Notes under the pieces: generated by a model
Database searches by the model: none
Seen by the model: the letters and a program-made list of their open reading frames with translations, nothing else
Told to the model about the DNA's origin: nothing
In this document: positions 1,197-23,638 of the stretch, piece after piece
How the letters are laid out: each line of letters opens with the position of its first letter
Numbering within the stretch: the first letter of the stretch is position 1
Source of the DNA: a virus
Taxonomy: Duplodnaviria; Caudoviricetes
Length of the DNA stretch: 25,871 bases
Virus record (IMG/VR): IMGVR_UViG_3300027798_000198
Coordinates: 1-25,871 of that record
Direction: 5' to 3' (one strand)
Position numbers and translations under genes: made by a program

Positions 1197-2537
1197 ATGT
1201 CTTACTTAGACAAAGTAATTGAACGCCGCGATGCAGTGAAGGCAGAGATGGATGCAGTTCTTGAGGCAGTAGCCGCAGAGAATCGCACCGATCTAACTGC
1301 TGATGAAACAACTAAGGTAGATGCTTTAGTTGCAGAATCACGCTCGCTAGATACAAAGATTGAAAACCTAAAGACCCAGGCAGATGCAGATGCAAAGGTT
1401 GCAGAAGTTCGTGCAGCAGTTGCAGATGTAGCAATGCCAAAGTCTGGTGGCGCAAAGGTAACCCGCGAGGAGCGTACCTATACTGCTCAATCAGGAGCAT
1501 CATTTATTAAAGATGCTTTTAATGCACAATTCAAGCAAGATTTCAGTGCTTCAGATCGTCTTGCTCGCCATATGCGCGAGGAAGAAGTTGAGCGTCGTGA
1601 TGGAACAACTGCAAACTTTGAAGGTTTAGTAGTTCCTCAATACTTAACTGATCTTGCTGCACCATTGGCTCGCGCAGGTCGCCCAACAGCAGACTTCGCA
1701 ACCAATAAGATCGCACTACCAGCGGCTGGAATGACTTTAAACATTAGCCGTATGACTACTGGTACATCAACAGCAATTCAACAAACTCAGGCAACTGATG
1801 TTTCTGAAACTGATGCTGATGATACTTTGCTAACTGTAAATGTTCGCACTATCGCTGGACAGCAAGACCTATCACGCCAAGCAATTGAGCGTGGAACAGG
1901 TATTGATTCCTTCGTAGTTGGCGATCTAATTCGTTCATGGCACACAACATTGAACTCACAGATTATCAATGGTGCTGGAACAAACGGAACTATCAAGGGT
2001 ATTCGTGCCTCTGGTGGAAACGCAATCACCTTCACTGCAACAACTCCAACTGTTGCACTTCTATATCCAAAGTTGGCTGATGCGTTGCAGAAAGTTCAAA
2101 GCAATGTATTTACAACTCCAACACATTGGATTATGCACCCACGCCGCCTAGCATTCTTGCTAGCAGGCGTTGATGGTTCAAATCGCCCATTAGTAGTTCC
2201 ATCAGCAAACGGCGTAATGAATGCCGTTGCAACAGGAGCAGGCGTTGCGCAATATGGAAACTCAGGTTATTCACTACTTGGATTACCAATTATTGCAGAT
2301 GCTTCAGTTCAAACTACTTTAAGCACTGATCAAGATGAAATCTATTTGGTTGATTCACGCGAGATGCACCTATTCGAGCAACCAGGATCACCATTCTCAC
2401 TTCGTTTTGAGGCAACAGGCGCAAGTAACCTAACTGTTAAAACAGTTGTTTATGGTTATGCAGCCTTCACCGCAGAACGCTATCCATTAGCCGCATCAAT
2501 CATTAGCGGAACTGGCTTAGCAGCACCATCCTTCTAA
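1197..2537 (+). CDS. Major capsid protein, HK97 fold, with N-terminal coiled-coil delta domain
   Basis: AAGGAG at 1183-1188 favours ATG 1197 over 1110. Helical N-terminus, GLVVPQYL, IINGAGTNG, WIMHPRR, SLLGLPII. Position after the protease. Confidence 0.92.
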   Translation: MSYLDKVIERRDAVKAEMDAVLEAVAAENRTDLTADETTKVDALVAESRSLDTKIENLKTQADADAKVAEVRAAVADVAMPKSGGAKVTREERTYTAQSGASFIKDAFNAQFKQDFSASDRLARHMREEEVERRDGTTANFEGLVVPQYLTDLAAPLARAGRPTADFATNKIALPAAGMTLNISRMTTGTSTAIQQTQATDVSETDADDTLLTVNVRTIAGQQDLSRQAIERGTGIDSFVVGDLIRSWHTTLNSQIINGAGTNGTIKGIRASGGNAITFTATTPTVALLYPKLADALQKVQSNVFTTPTHWIMHPRRLAFLLAGVDGSNRPLVVPSANGVMNAVATGAGVAQYGNSGYSLLGLPIIADASVQTTLSTDQDEIYLVDSREMHLFEQPGSPFSLRFEATGASNLTVKTVVYGYAAFTAERYPLAASIISGTGLAAPSF

Positions 2538-2558
2538 ATTAGAAGGTAATTAAGAACT

Positions 2559-2617
2559 GTTTAGGTGGCTTAACCTCCCCCGATTAAGCCACCTAAACTC
2601 CTAAGTAGTTCGGGGGA
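2559..2617 (+). promoter_or_regulatory. 15-bp hairpin with loop complementary to the downstream RBS (putative pseudoknot attenuator)
   Basis: GTTTAGGTGGCTTAA 2559-2573 pairs perfectly with TTAAGCCACCTAAAC 2584-2598. Loop TCCCCCGA 2576-2583 is the exact reverse complement of TCGGGGGA 2610-2617, just before ATG 2621. Confidence 0.7.
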
Positions 2618-2620
2618 ATT

Positions 2621-3304
2621 ATGAAAAGCGCACATAAAGTAACAATAGGTTCTTGCGATTCAGGCCAAGTAAATGGATCGTTTGCCTACACATTAATTCA
2701 ATTAGCCCAATCAAGATCATCAAGATTAGGGCCATTTGTAAGAGTTAAAGGTTCAGGATTACTTTCTAAGATTCGTAATCAAATAGTTAAACAATTTTTG
2801 GATAGTACAAAATCTGATTGGCTTTTGATGGTGGACAGCGATCAGCAACTAGGTGTTGCAACTTTTGATAAGTTGATTGATACAGCCCACGATTTAGAAC
2901 GGCCAGTTGTAGCAGGATTGGTATTTGCTGCTTTTAATGATGGCAAGAGTGAATATCCAAAACCAGTTCCAGCAATATTCCAAGATGCACCAGAGGGATT
3001 CTTACCTCTCTATAAATATGATGAGAACAAAGTTTTTGAAATAGATGCCGCAGGTACAGGTTGCCTTTTAATTCACCGCAGCGTTCTTGAAAAGATGCGT
3101 GAAACAGCCGATTCTAGTATGGGTAAAAATTGGTGTTGGTTTTGGGATGGCCCAGTAAATGGCGAATGGATAGGCGAGGATTTACTTTTCAGCCGTCGCA
3201 TTCGTTCCCTTGGATTTCCAATATATGTGCATACAGGGGCAATTTTGCCTCATCAAAAATCATACTGGCTAGATGATAGGCACCATAAATTATGGAAAAA
3301 TTAA
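2621..3304 (+). CDS. Glycosyltransferase, GT-A fold (GT2-like)
   Basis: RNQIVKQFL, WLLMVDSD (DxD), AAGTGCLLIHRSV, GEDLLFS, H-x-K near the C-terminus. Confidence 0.85.
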   Translation: MKSAHKVTIGSCDSGQVNGSFAYTLIQLAQSRSSRLGPFVRVKGSGLLSKIRNQIVKQFLDSTKSDWLLMVDSDQQLGVATFDKLIDTAHDLERPVVAGLVFAAFNDGKSEYPKPVPAIFQDAPEGFLPLYKYDENKVFEIDAAGTGCLLIHRSVLEKMRETADSSMGKNWCWFWDGPVNGEWIGEDLLFSRRIRSLGFPIYVHTGAILPHQKSYWLDDRHHKLWKN

Positions 3305-3417
3305 AAAAGATTTTTAATAAAAGAATTAAACCTAAAGAAACGGCTACTGCCCAGCCGCAACTTGAAAGAGCGATTTTACCTAAAGCGGAAAGAAGGATAA
3401 AGCGTGGCAATAACTAA
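3292..3417 (+). CDS. Small hypothetical protein (41 aa, basic)
   Basis: MEKLKKIFNKRIKPKETATAQPQLERAILPKAERRIKRGNN fills the gap, overlapping both neighbours. Not in the ORF track. Confidence 0.55.
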   Translation: MEKLKKIFNKRIKPKETATAQPQLERAILPKAERRIKRGNN

Positions 3418-4416: not shown

Positions 4417-4593
4417 ATGTCTTATGTAATTACCTCAGAAGTAGAGGTTTGTAATAAAAAGAAAGGTGAATCAATCACCGAAAAAGAATTGCTTAATGCA
4501 GGAGCCAACATCGAAGCATTGATTACTGGCAATCACATTAAGGCAACTGGGGGAACAACCAAACCAGCAATCCAAGAAGGAGCCGATAAATAA
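4417..4593 (+). CDS. Small hypothetical virion-region protein (58 aa)
   Basis: AAGGAG RBS. MSYVITSEVEVCNKKKGESITEKELLNAGANIEALITGNHIK...; TAATG overlap with the next gene. Not in the ORF track. Confidence 0.7.
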   Translation: MSYVITSEVEVCNKKKGESITEKELLNAGANIEALITGNHIKATGGTTKPAIQEGADK

Positions 4594-5003
4594 TGCCAAG
4601 ATTAGTATTAACAAATGCGAAGGTTACGATAAATTCAGTTAATTTATCTGATCACATCGCAAGCGTTACTTTAAGTACCAGTGCTGATGTAGTGGACACA
4701 ACAGGGTTCTCATCAACAGCAGCAAGAAGCCGTGTTGCTGGTTTGTTAGATAATTCTGTAACTCTTGAATTTCATCAGGACTTTGCAACATCAAATGTTG
4801 AACAAACAATTTATCCGCTGATTGGAACTACAACTACTGTTGTTGTTACTCCAGTTGATACAACAGTAGGTGCAACTAACCCTTCCTATACATTTTCTGC
4901 ATTAGTTGCAGAATGGCAACCATTATCAGGCGCAGTTGGCGAATTAGCCACTGCATCTGTTACTTGGCCAATTTCAGGATCAATCACTAAGGCGGTCGCA
5001 TAA
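4593..5003 (+). CDS. Tail tube (major tail) protein, copy 1
   Basis: S/T/V-rich beta protein, DVVDTTGF, ARSRVAGL, NPSYTF, GAVGELATASVTWP. Precedes chaperone and tape measure genes. Confidence 0.8.
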   Translation: MPRLVLTNAKVTINSVNLSDHIASVTLSTSADVVDTTGFSSTAARSRVAGLLDNSVTLEFHQDFATSNVEQTIYPLIGTTTTVVVTPVDTTVGATNPSYTFSALVAEWQPLSGAVGELATASVTWPISGSITKAVA

Positions 5004-5410
5004 TGGCAAGAATCGTATTAACTAACGCTTCAGTTACTTTCGCAAGCACTGATGTTTCAAGTTATGTAAGTTCAATAACTTTAAGCACCTCACTAGATGT
5101 AGTAGATACAACATCTTTCGGAAACACCGCACGCACTAGAGTTGCGGGATTAGCAGATAATCAGGTAACAGTTGAATTTTTCCAGGATTTCGGTTCTGGA
5201 CTTCTTGAATCAATTATTTACCCTACAATTGGAACTTCTGCTGCAATGGTAATTAAGCCAGTAGCAGGAAGTACAACTGCAACAAATCCATCATATTCAT
5301 TCAATGCTTTAGTTTCAGAATGGCAGCCACTATCTGGTGCCGTTGGAGAACTAGCAACAGCAAGTGTTACCTGGCCAATATCAGGTGCAATAACAAAAGC
5401 AACATCATAA
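5003..5410 (+). CDS. Tail tube (major tail) protein, copy 2
   Basis: About 65% identical to copy 1 by manual alignment (88 of 136). TAATG coupling. Confidence 0.8.
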   Translation: MARIVLTNASVTFASTDVSSYVSSITLSTSLDVVDTTSFGNTARTRVAGLADNQVTVEFFQDFGSGLLESIIYPTIGTSAAMVIKPVAGSTTATNPSYSFNALVSEWQPLSGAVGELATASVTWPISGAITKATS

Positions 5411-5429: not shown

Positions 5430-5708
5430 ATGGATGGATTATCACTAAAGATCAAAACTAACGATGGTGTAGATAGCGTTTTTTCACTACGCCCTCGCAC
5501 CATCGTTGCTTTTGAACAAAAGTTTGGTAAAGGATTGGCAAAATTGTTTGCAGAGGATCAAAAGATGGAACACATCTACTACCTCGCTTGGCAATCTTTG
5601 AAAGATAATGGCCGAGTTGTAAAACCTTTTGGCCCAGAATTTTTAGATACGCTGGAATCTGTTGAAATGATTTCAGACCCAAATTCAGAATCCACCGAGA
5701 TAGCCTAA
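5430..5708 (+). CDS. Tail assembly chaperone (gpG-like)
   Basis: GGGGGA RBS, IVAFEQKFGKG, between tail tube and tape measure genes. Slippery heptamer near the 3' end. Confidence 0.75.
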   Translation: MDGLSLKIKTNDGVDSVFSLRPRTIVAFEQKFGKGLAKLFAEDQKMEHIYYLAWQSLKDNGRVVKPFGPEFLDTLESVEMISDPNSESTEIA

Positions 5709-5839
5709 CCTTTGCAATTGCAACGGCCTCGGTGGAGTTGGGCATCTCTCCTATTGATTTGATAGATGCCCCTGATGGTGTCTTAGAAGCAATGTTCGCC
5801 TATCTAAAGGAAAGAGCAAAGGCAAATAAATATGGCTGA
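5678..5839 (+). CDS. -1 frameshift extension of the tail assembly chaperone (gpGT-like)
   Basis: C-CCA-AAT at 5678-5684 fits X-XXY-YYZ in the correct phase. The -1 frame is open: FRIHRDSLTFAIATASVELGISPIDLIDAPDGVLEAMFAYLKERAKANKYG, stop 5837-5839. Confidence 0.75.
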   Translation, partial: PKFRIHRDSLTFAIATASVELGISPIDLIDAPDGVLEAMFAYLKERAKANKYG

Positions 5840-12904: not shown

Positions 12905-13171
12905 ATGAATCGGGGGAAAATTTTAGATGAAGCCAAGAGGCTTACTCACACCGACAGGCAAGATGATTATGGAACGCCTGCTATTAACTTTAATCGTATC
13001 AGCAGGCTTCTATCTGCTTATCTTGATTGCGAGATAACACCAGAGCAAGGCGCTATGATTTGCGCACTAATCAAGGTGGCAAGATCAATGGAAACCTATA
13101 AGGCTGATAATTACATTGATGGCGCTGCTTATTTTGCGATAGCGGGGGAGTTAGCAAATGGTAAAGAGTGA
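12905..13171 (+). CDS. DUF6378-like phage protein
   Basis: ILDEAKRL..DRQDDYG.P..NF.RI, IKVAR, DNYIDGAAYFAIAGE. Confidence 0.75.
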   Translation: MNRGKILDEAKRLTHTDRQDDYGTPAINFNRISRLLSAYLDCEITPEQGAMICALIKVARSMETYKADNYIDGAAYFAIAGELANGKE

Positions 13172-13832
13172 TCTAGTAGTTTTAATTCCAACTCGCGGGC
13201 GGCCAGATAATGCCATTGCCTTAGAGCAGGCTTTTGTAGAAACAAATACAAAGGCTGCAAGATTTTACATAGTAGATTTTAATGATGAAACTCGAAATGA
13301 GTATTCCTGGAAACTGCCAGTTGAATCTGTAATTATGATTCATAATGAAACTGGTGGGATGGCTTACCCATTAAATTACATAGCCCGCCAATTTATAGGC
13401 GAGTTTGATAACTTTGCATTTATGGGTGATGATCACCGCCCAAGAACTGCTAACTGGGATGAAAAGTTTGTCGAGGAACTTTATACAGGCTCAGATATTG
13501 TTTATGGCAACGATCTATTCCAAGGCTCAGCGCTACCAACTGCGGTAGCGATGTCTGCTCAAATAGTTGAGCATCTGCGAGGAATGGTTCCTGATACTCA
13601 GCGCCATTTATACTTAGATAACTTTTGGTTAAAACTAGGGCAAGATTTAGGCAAGATTAAATACCTACCTGATGTAATCATTGAGCATTGCCACGCCTTC
13701 AATGGCAAGGCGCCAATGGATGATAATTACGCCAGGGTAAATGCTCCTGAAGTTTACTCAGCCGATAAGGTTGCCTTTGATGCTTATATGGCTGGTGCAG
13801 AGTATCAAGATTTATTGGCAAAATTAAAATGA
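13158..13832 (+). CDS. Glycosyltransferase, GT2-like
   Basis: VVLIPTRGRP, FAFMGDDH, IVYGND, HLYLDN, IIEHCH. Confidence 0.8.
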   Translation: MVKSDLVVLIPTRGRPDNAIALEQAFVETNTKAARFYIVDFNDETRNEYSWKLPVESVIMIHNETGGMAYPLNYIARQFIGEFDNFAFMGDDHRPRTANWDEKFVEELYTGSDIVYGNDLFQGSALPTAVAMSAQIVEHLRGMVPDTQRHLYLDNFWLKLGQDLGKIKYLPDVIIEHCHAFNGKAPMDDNYARVNAPEVYSADKVAFDAYMAGAEYQDLLAKLK

Positions 13833-14419
13833 AAATAAATGATCTTTTTGATGCAGTAATTGTAGTTAATTTGGATAGACGCCCTGATAGGTTAAAAGGT
13901 ATAACACATCAATTAAGCAAATTACAAATAACTTGGCATAAATGGCCAGCCATTGATAATTTAAATACAGATATGAGCCCAATATTCTGCAATACAATGA
14001 ATTGGCTTAATAGGCTTTTTTATTCTCAATATAAAGAATATAAAAGTGTTTTATTTTTAGATGATGATTGTGAGTTTGTGGATAATTTTTATGAAAAACT
14101 AGAACAAGTTTGGCCTGAAATTCCTGATGATTGGGATACAGTAAGTTTTGGTGATCATTTAATCAAATCAACTAAAATTACTGATAAAATTTACAAAATA
14201 GATGAATCTTATGGCGGCCATGCCACAGCATTGAAAATTAATTGCATTCCTACTATTTTTACTGGATTAACTGGTAAAAATTTTGGGGATATTGAAATGA
14301 ACTCATTAAGTAATAAATTAAATAGATATGCAATTGAACCTGGATTAATAGGGCAGGGTCGTTATGAATCAGATTTAGTTGGCGGTATTAGGCCTAATAT
14401 TTACAATTTGTGGCAATAA
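13829..14419 (+). CDS. Glycosyltransferase family 25-like
   Basis: VVNLDRRPDRL, VLFLDDDCEF, PDDWD, GGHA. Markedly AT-rich. Confidence 0.8.
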   Translation: MKINDLFDAVIVVNLDRRPDRLKGITHQLSKLQITWHKWPAIDNLNTDMSPIFCNTMNWLNRLFYSQYKEYKSVLFLDDDCEFVDNFYEKLEQVWPEIPDDWDTVSFGDHLIKSTKITDKIYKIDESYGGHATALKINCIPTIFTGLTGKNFGDIEMNSLSNKLNRYAIEPGLIGQGRYESDLVGGIRPNIYNLWQ

Positions 14420-15282
14420 TGAAAATTCTAATTACAGGCGATGAAGGATTTGTAGGTAGAGCCTTTCATAGAGCGCTAGATACAAAGAATAATGAAGTAG
14501 TTGGCTTTGATATTAAATCAGGCATTGATGCTCGCAAATTCTTTGCAGCCGATAACACTTACTTTGATGTTGTAATCCACTTAGCCGCCGTTGTCGGTGG
14601 CAGAGCCACCATTGAAGGTAATCCTTTGGCAGTTGCCACTGACCTGGCGATTGATTCTGACCTATTCCAATGGGCGCTTAGAACCCGCCCTGGGCGAATA
14701 GTTTATTTCTCATCCTCTGCTGCTTATCCAATTATGTTGCAGCGAGCAAGATTTAAAGCAAGATTATCTGAGCAAGATATAAATTTAGAACACATTAGAA
14801 CTCCTGATCAAACTTATGGTTGGAGTAAATTAACTGGTGAGATGCTGGCGCAGTACGCCAGAGATGAAGGCTTAAAGGTAACAATCCTTCGCCCATTTTC
14901 AGGATACGGCGCAGATCAATCTTTAGATTATCCATTCCCATCATTTATTGCTAGGGCTAAGGCGAAAGCATCACCATTTAAAATATGGGGATCAGGTCAG
15001 CAAGTAAGAGATTTTGTACATATTGACGATGTAGTTCAAGCAACTTTTGCAGCCATTCTTAATGGCGTTGAAGTTATGAATATCTGCTCTGGTAGGGCAA
15101 CCTCTTTTATTGATTTAGCAGAAATGATGATGTTATCTGCTGGATATTTAGCACCAATCCAAACTGATATAACTGCGCCAGTTGGCGTTGAGTATCGTGT
15201 TGGTAACCCAAGATTTATGAATATGATTTATGAACCAAAGATTTCCTTAGAGCAGGGTATAGCGCAAGCGCTAGCCCAATAA
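14419..15282 (+). CDS. NAD-dependent nucleotide-sugar epimerase/dehydratase (extended SDR)
   Basis: MKILITGDEGFVG, VIHLAA, FSSSAAY, YGWSK (YxxxK), LRPFSGYG, RDFVHIDD. TAATG coupling. Confidence 0.9.
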   Translation: MKILITGDEGFVGRAFHRALDTKNNEVVGFDIKSGIDARKFFAADNTYFDVVIHLAAVVGGRATIEGNPLAVATDLAIDSDLFQWALRTRPGRIVYFSSSAAYPIMLQRARFKARLSEQDINLEHIRTPDQTYGWSKLTGEMLAQYARDEGLKVTILRPFSGYGADQSLDYPFPSFIARAKAKASPFKIWGSGQQVRDFVHIDDVVQATFAAILNGVEVMNICSGRATSFIDLAEMMMLSAGYLAPIQTDITAPVGVEYRVGNPRFMNMIYEPKISLEQGIAQALAQ

Positions 15283-15333
15283 AAAATCCCTACCTCGCCA
15301 GCCGTCGGCGGAGGTAGGGATTTTTTTCTTTTT
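15281..15333. terminator. Bidirectional rho-independent terminator
   Basis: AAAAAATCCCTACCTC 15281-15296 / GAGGTAGGGATTTTTT 15311-15326 with A and T tracts, between convergent genes. Confidence 0.9.
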
Positions 15334-23452: not shown

Positions 23453-23638
23453 AAAACAACCGATCCGCCGATCCGCAACCGATCCGCCGAACCTGCGGAT
23501 TCCTGCCATATAACCGATCCGCGCCTTCCCCCCCTTATAGGGGGGAGGCGGATCGGTGGTTCGGTATGCGTAGAGGATCGGTGCTATGAACTATTTAGAC
23601 TTTAAACCTATAAATTGCAGAGCCTGTGGAAAACTTAT
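23434..23638. repeat. Putative replication origin: CCGATCCGC iterons, C/G hairpin, flanking DnaA-box repeats
   Basis: CCGATCCGC at 23460, 23468, 23479, 23514, inverted at 23548-23556. C-tract-TTATA-G-tract hairpin. GCCTGTGGA(T/A)AACTTAT at 23434-23450 and 23622-23638. Confidence 0.7.

Follow-up and report, generated by a model that had tools for sequence, protein, structure and literature searches.

The stretch between the major capsid protein gene and the glycosyltransferase gene that follows it in a 25,871-base virus record (the window, i.e. the whole stretch of DNA analysed) holds a real, conserved and apparently uncatalogued phage RNA element. We consider it probable that this element acts in cis as a constitutive pseudoknot that lowers translation of the glycosyltransferase on read-through mRNA, with its stem also bounding the capsid mRNA. 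The features are as follows.

1197..2537, + strand: major capsid protein gene (PF05065, E 6.9e-16; stop codon TAA at 2535-2537)
2530..2546, + strand: hairpin across the capsid stop codon (7 bp, 3-nt loop)
2559..2573, + strand: 5′ arm of the long stem S1 (perfect 15-bp pairing, 100%)
2574..2583, + strand: loop of 10 nt with a conserved CCCCCGA core, anti-Shine-Dalgarno-like
2584..2598, + strand: 3′ arm of the long stem S1 (perfect 15-bp pairing, 100%)
2599..2609, + strand: linker from stem to target (11 nt; in relatives the distance to GGGGG is about 3-16 nt)
2605..2622, + strand: hairpin P3, with GGGG as its tetraloop (-4.8 kcal/mol; at least 4 bp in 54 of 78 elements)
2610..2617, + strand: loop target, the exact complement of loop positions 2576-2583
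2621..3304, + strand: GT-A-type glycosyltransferase gene, predicted to be braked (PHROG 34859, E 1.7e-31; PDB 2c0n A197, E 4.6e-5)

The genes in this region run in the order prohead protease, major capsid, glycosyltransferase, head-tail adaptor, tail terminator and two major tail genes. The capsid reading frame is open from 1110, its likely start being ATG 1197 with an AAGGAG site upstream, and its product is 34-38% identical to mycobacteriophage major capsid proteins. Together with a WhiB gene, this identity suggests that the host of the phage is actinobacterial. A preliminary description of this DNA had called the gene after the capsid a glycosyltransferase, and the match to PHROG 34859 bears this out; homologues of 2621..3304 carry GT2 names in their source annotation, and a Pfam profile search gave no match. 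From the position of the gene we infer that the enzyme modifies the capsid or virion, as PMC11256854 likewise suggests for a mycobacteriophage. In phages Omega and Porcelain, too, glycosyltransferases adjoin the capsid gene. A fusion of the two products by readthrough or frameshifting at the capsid stop is ruled out by stops in both frames, an in-frame TAA at 2547-2549 and a TAG at 2540-2542 in the glycosyltransferase frame.

Three observations in the preliminary description hold in the window: a perfect 15-bp stem lies beyond the capsid stop (2559-2573 paired with 2584-2598), it has no U-tract, and eight bases of its loop exactly complement the Shine-Dalgarno region of the next gene (2576-2583 against 2610-2617). 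The likely Shine-Dalgarno site itself is GGGGG at 2612-2616, 4 nt upstream of ATG 2621-2623. The folding z-score of the region is -4.31, and none of 200 shuffles was equally stable. By chance, an 8-mer complement of the loop occurs in 92 of the 25,841 30-nt windows of the genome (0.36%). GGGGG is a common ribosome site across this genome, so the target half of the match is unremarkable on its own. A terminator search called no U-tract terminator on the + strand at the element and flagged the minus strand only; relatives carry a short pyrimidine run 3′ of the stem. A canonical intrinsic terminator was thus rejected, since the sense strand lacks a U-tract and offers only this short run. A scan of the + strand of the element for sigma-70-like promoters, a model that does not cover phage late promoters, gave none, and a search of the window for further copies of the element found none beyond its own site (next best E 1). 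An Rfam 15 search of 2530-2623 with E values up to 10 gave no match, in agreement with the earlier remark that the structure belongs to no named RNA family.

Conservation was analysed within the window's own clade, defined as 135 distinct loci whose capsid C-terminal identity is at least 60%. The CCCCCG loop is kept in 134 of them. The exception, locus L633, has a remodelled loop, no GGGGG and no glycosyltransferase directly downstream; directly 3′ of its capsid element lies an ORF similar to a 41-aa basic ORF found in the window at 3292-3417 (+), which overlaps the end of the glycosyltransferase gene and the start of the head-tail adaptor gene. The 134 loci collapse into 78 distinct elements, among which 51 different 5′ arms occur, and the loop is invariant although the stem sequence turns over. 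All 78 elements have the GGGGG ribosome site, 3-7 nt upstream of the glycosyltransferase start.

For the stem, 45 matches (44 sense, 1 antisense) were fitted to a model; six distant loci were also offered to the alignment and none matched. Both sides have changed at 15 of the 17 pairs, and 99.1% of alignment cells are paired, against 34-54% in slid controls. Covariation as high was reached in 0 of 500 shuffles, a test that sequence kinship inflates. Across 138 distinct stems, with symmetric scoring, there are 108 internal G·U pairs against 8 A·C pairs. The 15-bp stem is therefore a real sense-strand RNA helix, and the same count disfavours a role for the minus strand or for a DNA cruciform. 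Covariation of stem 1 on the sense strand, as in an H-type pseudoknot over the Shine-Dalgarno site, is thus present.

The conserved match between loop and ribosome site is CCCCC:GGGGG, i.e. 5 bp. Of the 78 elements, 76 retain the loop GA, yet the target can pair with it in only 54; what they share is thus a core of 5 bp, with extension to 8 bp optional. The full 8-bp pairing proposed earlier is accordingly not conserved as such, whereas its 5-bp core is retained in 78 of 78 clade elements. Retention of GA where it has no partner points to another constraint on the loop; the base of the stem, like the loop GA, is conserved in sequence. Because the C5:G5 core is invariant, the covariation between loop and Shine-Dalgarno site that had been suggested as a check gives no signal within the clade; it is seen in distant lineages, as 27 distinct pairs. 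A pattern scan for CCCCCGA followed by TCGGGGG found a hairpin of at least 8 bp around the loop in 13 of 120 loci, 10 of which are capsid-glycosyltransferase elements, and hence the CCCCCGA hairpin is no general repeat. Near-identical TCGGGGGA sites also sit behind UUCG-type hairpins that have no matching loop (L469, L477).

Beyond the clade, 650 loci were gathered, and capsid end plus downstream sequence was available for 446. A long hairpin is present in 98 of 110 distinct regions downstream of the capsid gene. Scoring as positive those with at least seven Watson-Crick pairs between the loop and the next 30 nt, 35 of the 98 hairpins match the start region of the next gene, through 27 distinct loop/target pairs such as TTCCATTC/GAATGGAA, TTGGGATG/CATCCCAA and TCCACGG/CCGTGGA. 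When loops and targets were crossed between loci, 64 of 702 combinations matched. Between near relatives, one-position compensations are found (L453/L563, L577/L586 and L286/L305). With capsids clustered at 80% identity, where the window's clade counts several times, 22 of 54 cognate combinations are positive against 4.0% of non-cognate ones, and 20,000 permutations reached at most 10; at 65%, 7 of 24 clusters are positive (3 of them from the window's clade), where permutations gave no more than 5, and the energy test is marginal, its mean energy being reached by one permutation.

The remaining 63 distant hairpins have no loop match, including cases before glycosyltransferases (L283, L373, L375, L466). 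The cultured mycobacteriophages Omega, Bipper, Porcelain and Typha (L201-L204) have the hairpin and no 7-pair loop match; in Typha, the loop match consists of 5 Watson-Crick and 2 G·U pairs, and Omega and Porcelain apparently, by eye, carry a local hairpin over the ribosome site. Prophage searches found this capsid type in 3 of 401 and 10 of 301 genomes, and a loop match occurred in none of the 11 prophage loci analysed (the G413 locus was left out). For 18 distant loci, Rfam searches stayed below threshold, with 6C (E 0.63) and mir-1322 (E 0.45) as the sole hits.

On a quick-search capsid tree of 83 rows, the positives fall into the window's clade, one separate clade (23 of 31 rows) and L468. 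In the separate clade the stem is often framed by YAG..GC and accompanied by an additional 5′ hairpin; the window element has neither this hairpin nor the YAG joint. Several members of that clade precede HNH or endonuclease VII genes; distant elements found before such genes are L371, L457 and L586. Since the covarying elements lie on other branches of the capsid tree, several of them before such nuclease genes, we take them as support for the design and not as proven homologues; the loop-3′ pairing, invariant in the clade, covaries in 27 pairs from these other lineages, whose elements may be of convergent origin. A long, enzyme-sized gene follows in 20 of 20 positive against 10 of 30 negative clusters; this association is not counted as support, because many loci were fetched via their glycosyltransferase, kin are non-independent and four positives with a short next gene were not cluster representatives.

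Two further arrangements were seen among the distant loci. L449, L378, L363, L371, L455 and their kin have a two-hairpin element (first hairpin, YAG joint, long stem, GC, target) that follows the capsid stop and precedes glycosyltransferases, methyltransferase-like genes, nucleases or a peptidase; these elements have no Rfam match. In L286, L305 and L367, the loop target is present in 2-3 tandem copies, about 25-60 nt before the glycosyltransferase start and running towards the ribosome site.

Near-identical sequence is present in lake RNA libraries, whose contigs give neither transcript ends nor levels and may include DNA. The capsid gene is covered by contigs in 8 of 8 runs; among the contigs listed, ends fall at 2521-2568 in at least 5 of the 8 runs and contigs bridge into the glycosyltransferase gene in at least 2 of the 8. 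This is a weak hint, fitting partial stopping combined with read-through.

These data bear on an alternative in which the stem serves as a U-poor terminator or decay barrier of the capsid mRNA and nothing else, the C-rich loop being kept for another reason, e.g. contact with a protein, and the GGGGG match being incidental. The abundance of long hairpins after distant capsid genes, mostly with no matching loop, would fit such a role, as would the loop GA that persists where it has no partner and the frequency of GGGGG sites in the genome. However, it does not predict that loop and target covary in other lineages, nor that the clade loop stays fixed while the stem around it turns over; plain hairpins are moreover mostly short-looped (5 nt or fewer in 39 of 61), and the bridging contigs cross the element. 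We therefore regard this alternative as unlikely.

From a single transcript, a late phage operon has to yield capsid subunits by the hundred but enzymes only in traces. According to the pseudoknot model, the late transcript would continue past the capsid gene into that of the glycosyltransferase, and the long stem would fold first. The stem is likely also the 3′ boundary of a capsid-only mRNA, acting as a U-poor terminator or decay barrier. On the read-through mRNA, the loop would capture the ribosome site, with 0-3 bp fraying at the base of the stem where the linker is short, and if the knot opened, a weak local hairpin would still cover the site in two thirds of elements. The result would be a fixed, low ratio of enzyme to capsid, set by a rheostat and not by an on/off switch. 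In this way the element likely keeps the glycosyltransferase scarce during bulk capsid synthesis. The pseudoknot of the preliminary description is thereby kept in its conserved stem and in a loop able to pair with the ribosome site of the next gene, and is given up as a switch.

Geometry and energetics were estimated using model lengths of 2.8 Å per base pair and 6.5 Å per linker base. Linkers are often 3-6 nt for stems of 12-16 bp, with a median of 5 nt for a median stem of 13.5 bp (38 elements), and these short linkers imply a strained pseudoknot. A rough estimate of geometry and stacking, which ignores the cost of stretching the linker, predicts fraying of 0-4 bp and gives a favourable net balance for each of the 38 elements (median -7.7 kcal/mol). 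In the window, where an 11-nt linker serves a 15-bp stem, the rough model requires no fraying. The loop-target duplex is predicted at -16.5 kcal/mol, while pairing of the 16S rRNA tail to the same target reaches -8.6 kcal/mol.

Such strain would be avoided if the loop acted in trans, with the abundant capsid mRNAs that end at the stem binding G-rich ribosome sites on other molecules in the manner of the actinobacterial 6C RNA; the proposed targets are read-through copies, other phage genes and host genes. Passages of PMC6486639 describe C-rich loops of 6C that bind G-rich ribosome sites without a chaperone. The window holds four 8-mer complements of the loop, and three of them coincide with translation starts (2610, 12910, 13143), the 12910 site being kept in 62 of 62 and the 13143 site in 54 of 62 related loci. 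However, the 12910 and 13143 sites are accounted for as ribosome sites on which overlapping frames impose a constraint, distant loops track the adjacent target base by base, as action in cis predicts, and the sole 6C match is the sub-threshold one in a distant locus. A purely trans-acting loop is thus rather improbable. Less probable again is a combined form, in which the 3′ end of the capsid mRNA would be a chaperone-free, 6C-like anti-Shine-Dalgarno RNA that brakes the adjacent glycosyltransferase and also binds the 13143 and 12910 sites in trans as late mRNA accumulates; if true, it would tie capsid output to virion modification and to the timing of lysis.

The regions around these two sites hold features of their own. 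Nested in the +1 frame of the DUF6378 gene (12905-13171) is an ORF at 12927-13037 (+) for a hydrophobic product of 36 aa, preceded by a separate GGGGG site at 12912. The 36-aa frame is open in 61 of 62 related loci and accounts for two invariant rare codons. It lies near a CHAP endolysin gene (12220), and our guess is that its product is a lysis-related membrane peptide. A second sugar-modification cluster occupies 13158-15282, with two more glycosyltransferases and an NAD-dependent epimerase; the ribosome site of its first glycosyltransferase (13143) complements the capsid hairpin loop.

Hairpin P3 offers a local cover for the ribosome site, and its flanks change together (AGTTC/GAACT, GATTC/GAATC, GAATC/GATTC, TAATC/GATTA). 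P3 and the extended loop-target helix are mutually exclusive, which would allow the loop to activate translation, by breaking P3 or by holding the start region open, much as the pseudoknot of repZ does according to passages of PMC8383071. In L378, L286 and L305, moreover, the targets end 15-17 nt before the start, upstream of a purine-rich site. In most distant positives, though, 5-11 nt separate the end of the target from the start, and in the clade there is no Shine-Dalgarno-like run besides the target, so that loop pairing occupies the ribosome site; activation is very unlikely.

Two small structures in the preliminary description had suggested a two-state switch. An 8-bp inverted repeat over the stop codon is present as two 8-nt arms with a 1-nt spacer (2530-2537/2539-2546), although it folds as 7 bp with a 3-nt loop. 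A stem of at least 5 bp occurs in 72 of 78 distinct stop regions, whereas shuffled controls give 29.7; these stems comprise 31 arm pairs, and the stop hairpin has no overlap with the long stem S1. The alternative pairing of GAACT 2554-2558 with AGTTC 2607-2611 was correctly placed, but it is weak (-4.6 kcal/mol) and conserved in only 11 of 78 elements; AGTTC closes P3 instead, over the same ribosome site, and there is hence no evidence for an on/off switch. A regulated switch, with a phage protein or a ribosome on the capsid stop codon as its trigger, might draw on the frequency of the stop-codon hairpin and on the sequence conservation of stem base and loop GA, but with a stop hairpin that leaves the stem untouched, a rarely kept alternative pairing and a ribosome site covered in both predicted states, it is highly improbable.

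Among known systems, RNA helices over the ribosome site reduce translation of T4 genes (passages of PMC2988022 and PMC3014915). The hairpins of T4 and its relatives (I-TevI/II/III, segB, mobE, e, soc), as far as these sources describe them, resemble the model for the window in placing a helix over the Shine-Dalgarno site on a longer transcript, but there the site lies inside a simple stem and is relieved by a late promoter within the structure, whereas here it would be captured by the loop of a separate hairpin, and the sigma-70 scan found no such internal promoter on the + strand. The T4 gene 32 operator, like the knot predicted in the window, lies in a phage mRNA upstream of a start codon, folds as a pseudoknot and takes part in repressing translation (excerpts of PMC3014915); unlike the predicted knot, the gene 32 knot lies about 67 nt upstream, excludes the ribosome site and nucleates gp32 binding. 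In repZ of the IncI-alpha plasmid ColIb-P9, whose layout resembles that proposed here, a knot next to the ribosome site controls translation, but the portion of PMC8383071 that deals with it describes activation, blocked by an antisense RNA, whereas in the window the target is the ribosome site itself. The 6C sRNA (RF01066) is likewise actinobacterial and sets C-rich hairpin loops against G-rich ribosome sites, though it is, in the same passages of PMC6486639, a host-encoded, trans-acting, stand-alone RNA with two loops, while the window has one C-rich loop adjoining its own target. Identity with 6C was rejected on this single loop and on the lack of an RF01066 match in the window.

One catalogued motif may be the same hairpin, to which we liken it by table description and not by sequence: DNAVirus_1157 (Fremin et al. 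2023, PMC10690425), a palindromic motif of 56 nt from tailed phages, with 44 sequences, 40 of them freshwater. The tables of that paper list one Glycos_transf_2 gene within 25 nt of it, in rows that give no function. A literature search found no description of the element; the supplements of PMC5737381 and PMC10690425 (files 1-2), which lay outside that search, may hold the motif, and in the main text of PMC5737381 neither 'capsid' nor 'gpT' occurs.

Hiding a ribosome site in RNA structure is an already established principle, and the surprise is moderate. If the pseudoknot model is right, the element would be a compact, testable RNA solution to the problem of capsid and enzyme dosage in a common lake phage clade. 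A similar design recurs after the capsid genes of other lineages with many loop/target pairs, and this natural series could serve as a test set for long-stem, short-linker cis pseudoknots as tunable translation brakes.

Several other features of the window were seen. The prohead protease at 87-1085 has a fused C-terminal Hva1 Tudor-like domain. Tandem major-tail-protein paralogues of PHROG 4574 lie at 4593-5003 and 5003-5410, and the contig depth in the RNA libraries is apparently mainly over the first of them, in contigs that are unable to rank genes. Behind these, at 5430-5832, a 92-aa ORF is followed by a gap until the next long ORF, at what we take to be the usual site of the tail-chaperone frameshift. 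A perfect 16-bp hairpin with A and T tracts at 15281-15326, between converging genes, resembles a bidirectional terminator. Finally, 3′ of the primase-polymerase gene, 23455-23565 holds repeated ACCGATCCGC units and a strong C7/G6 hairpin, a possible replication origin.
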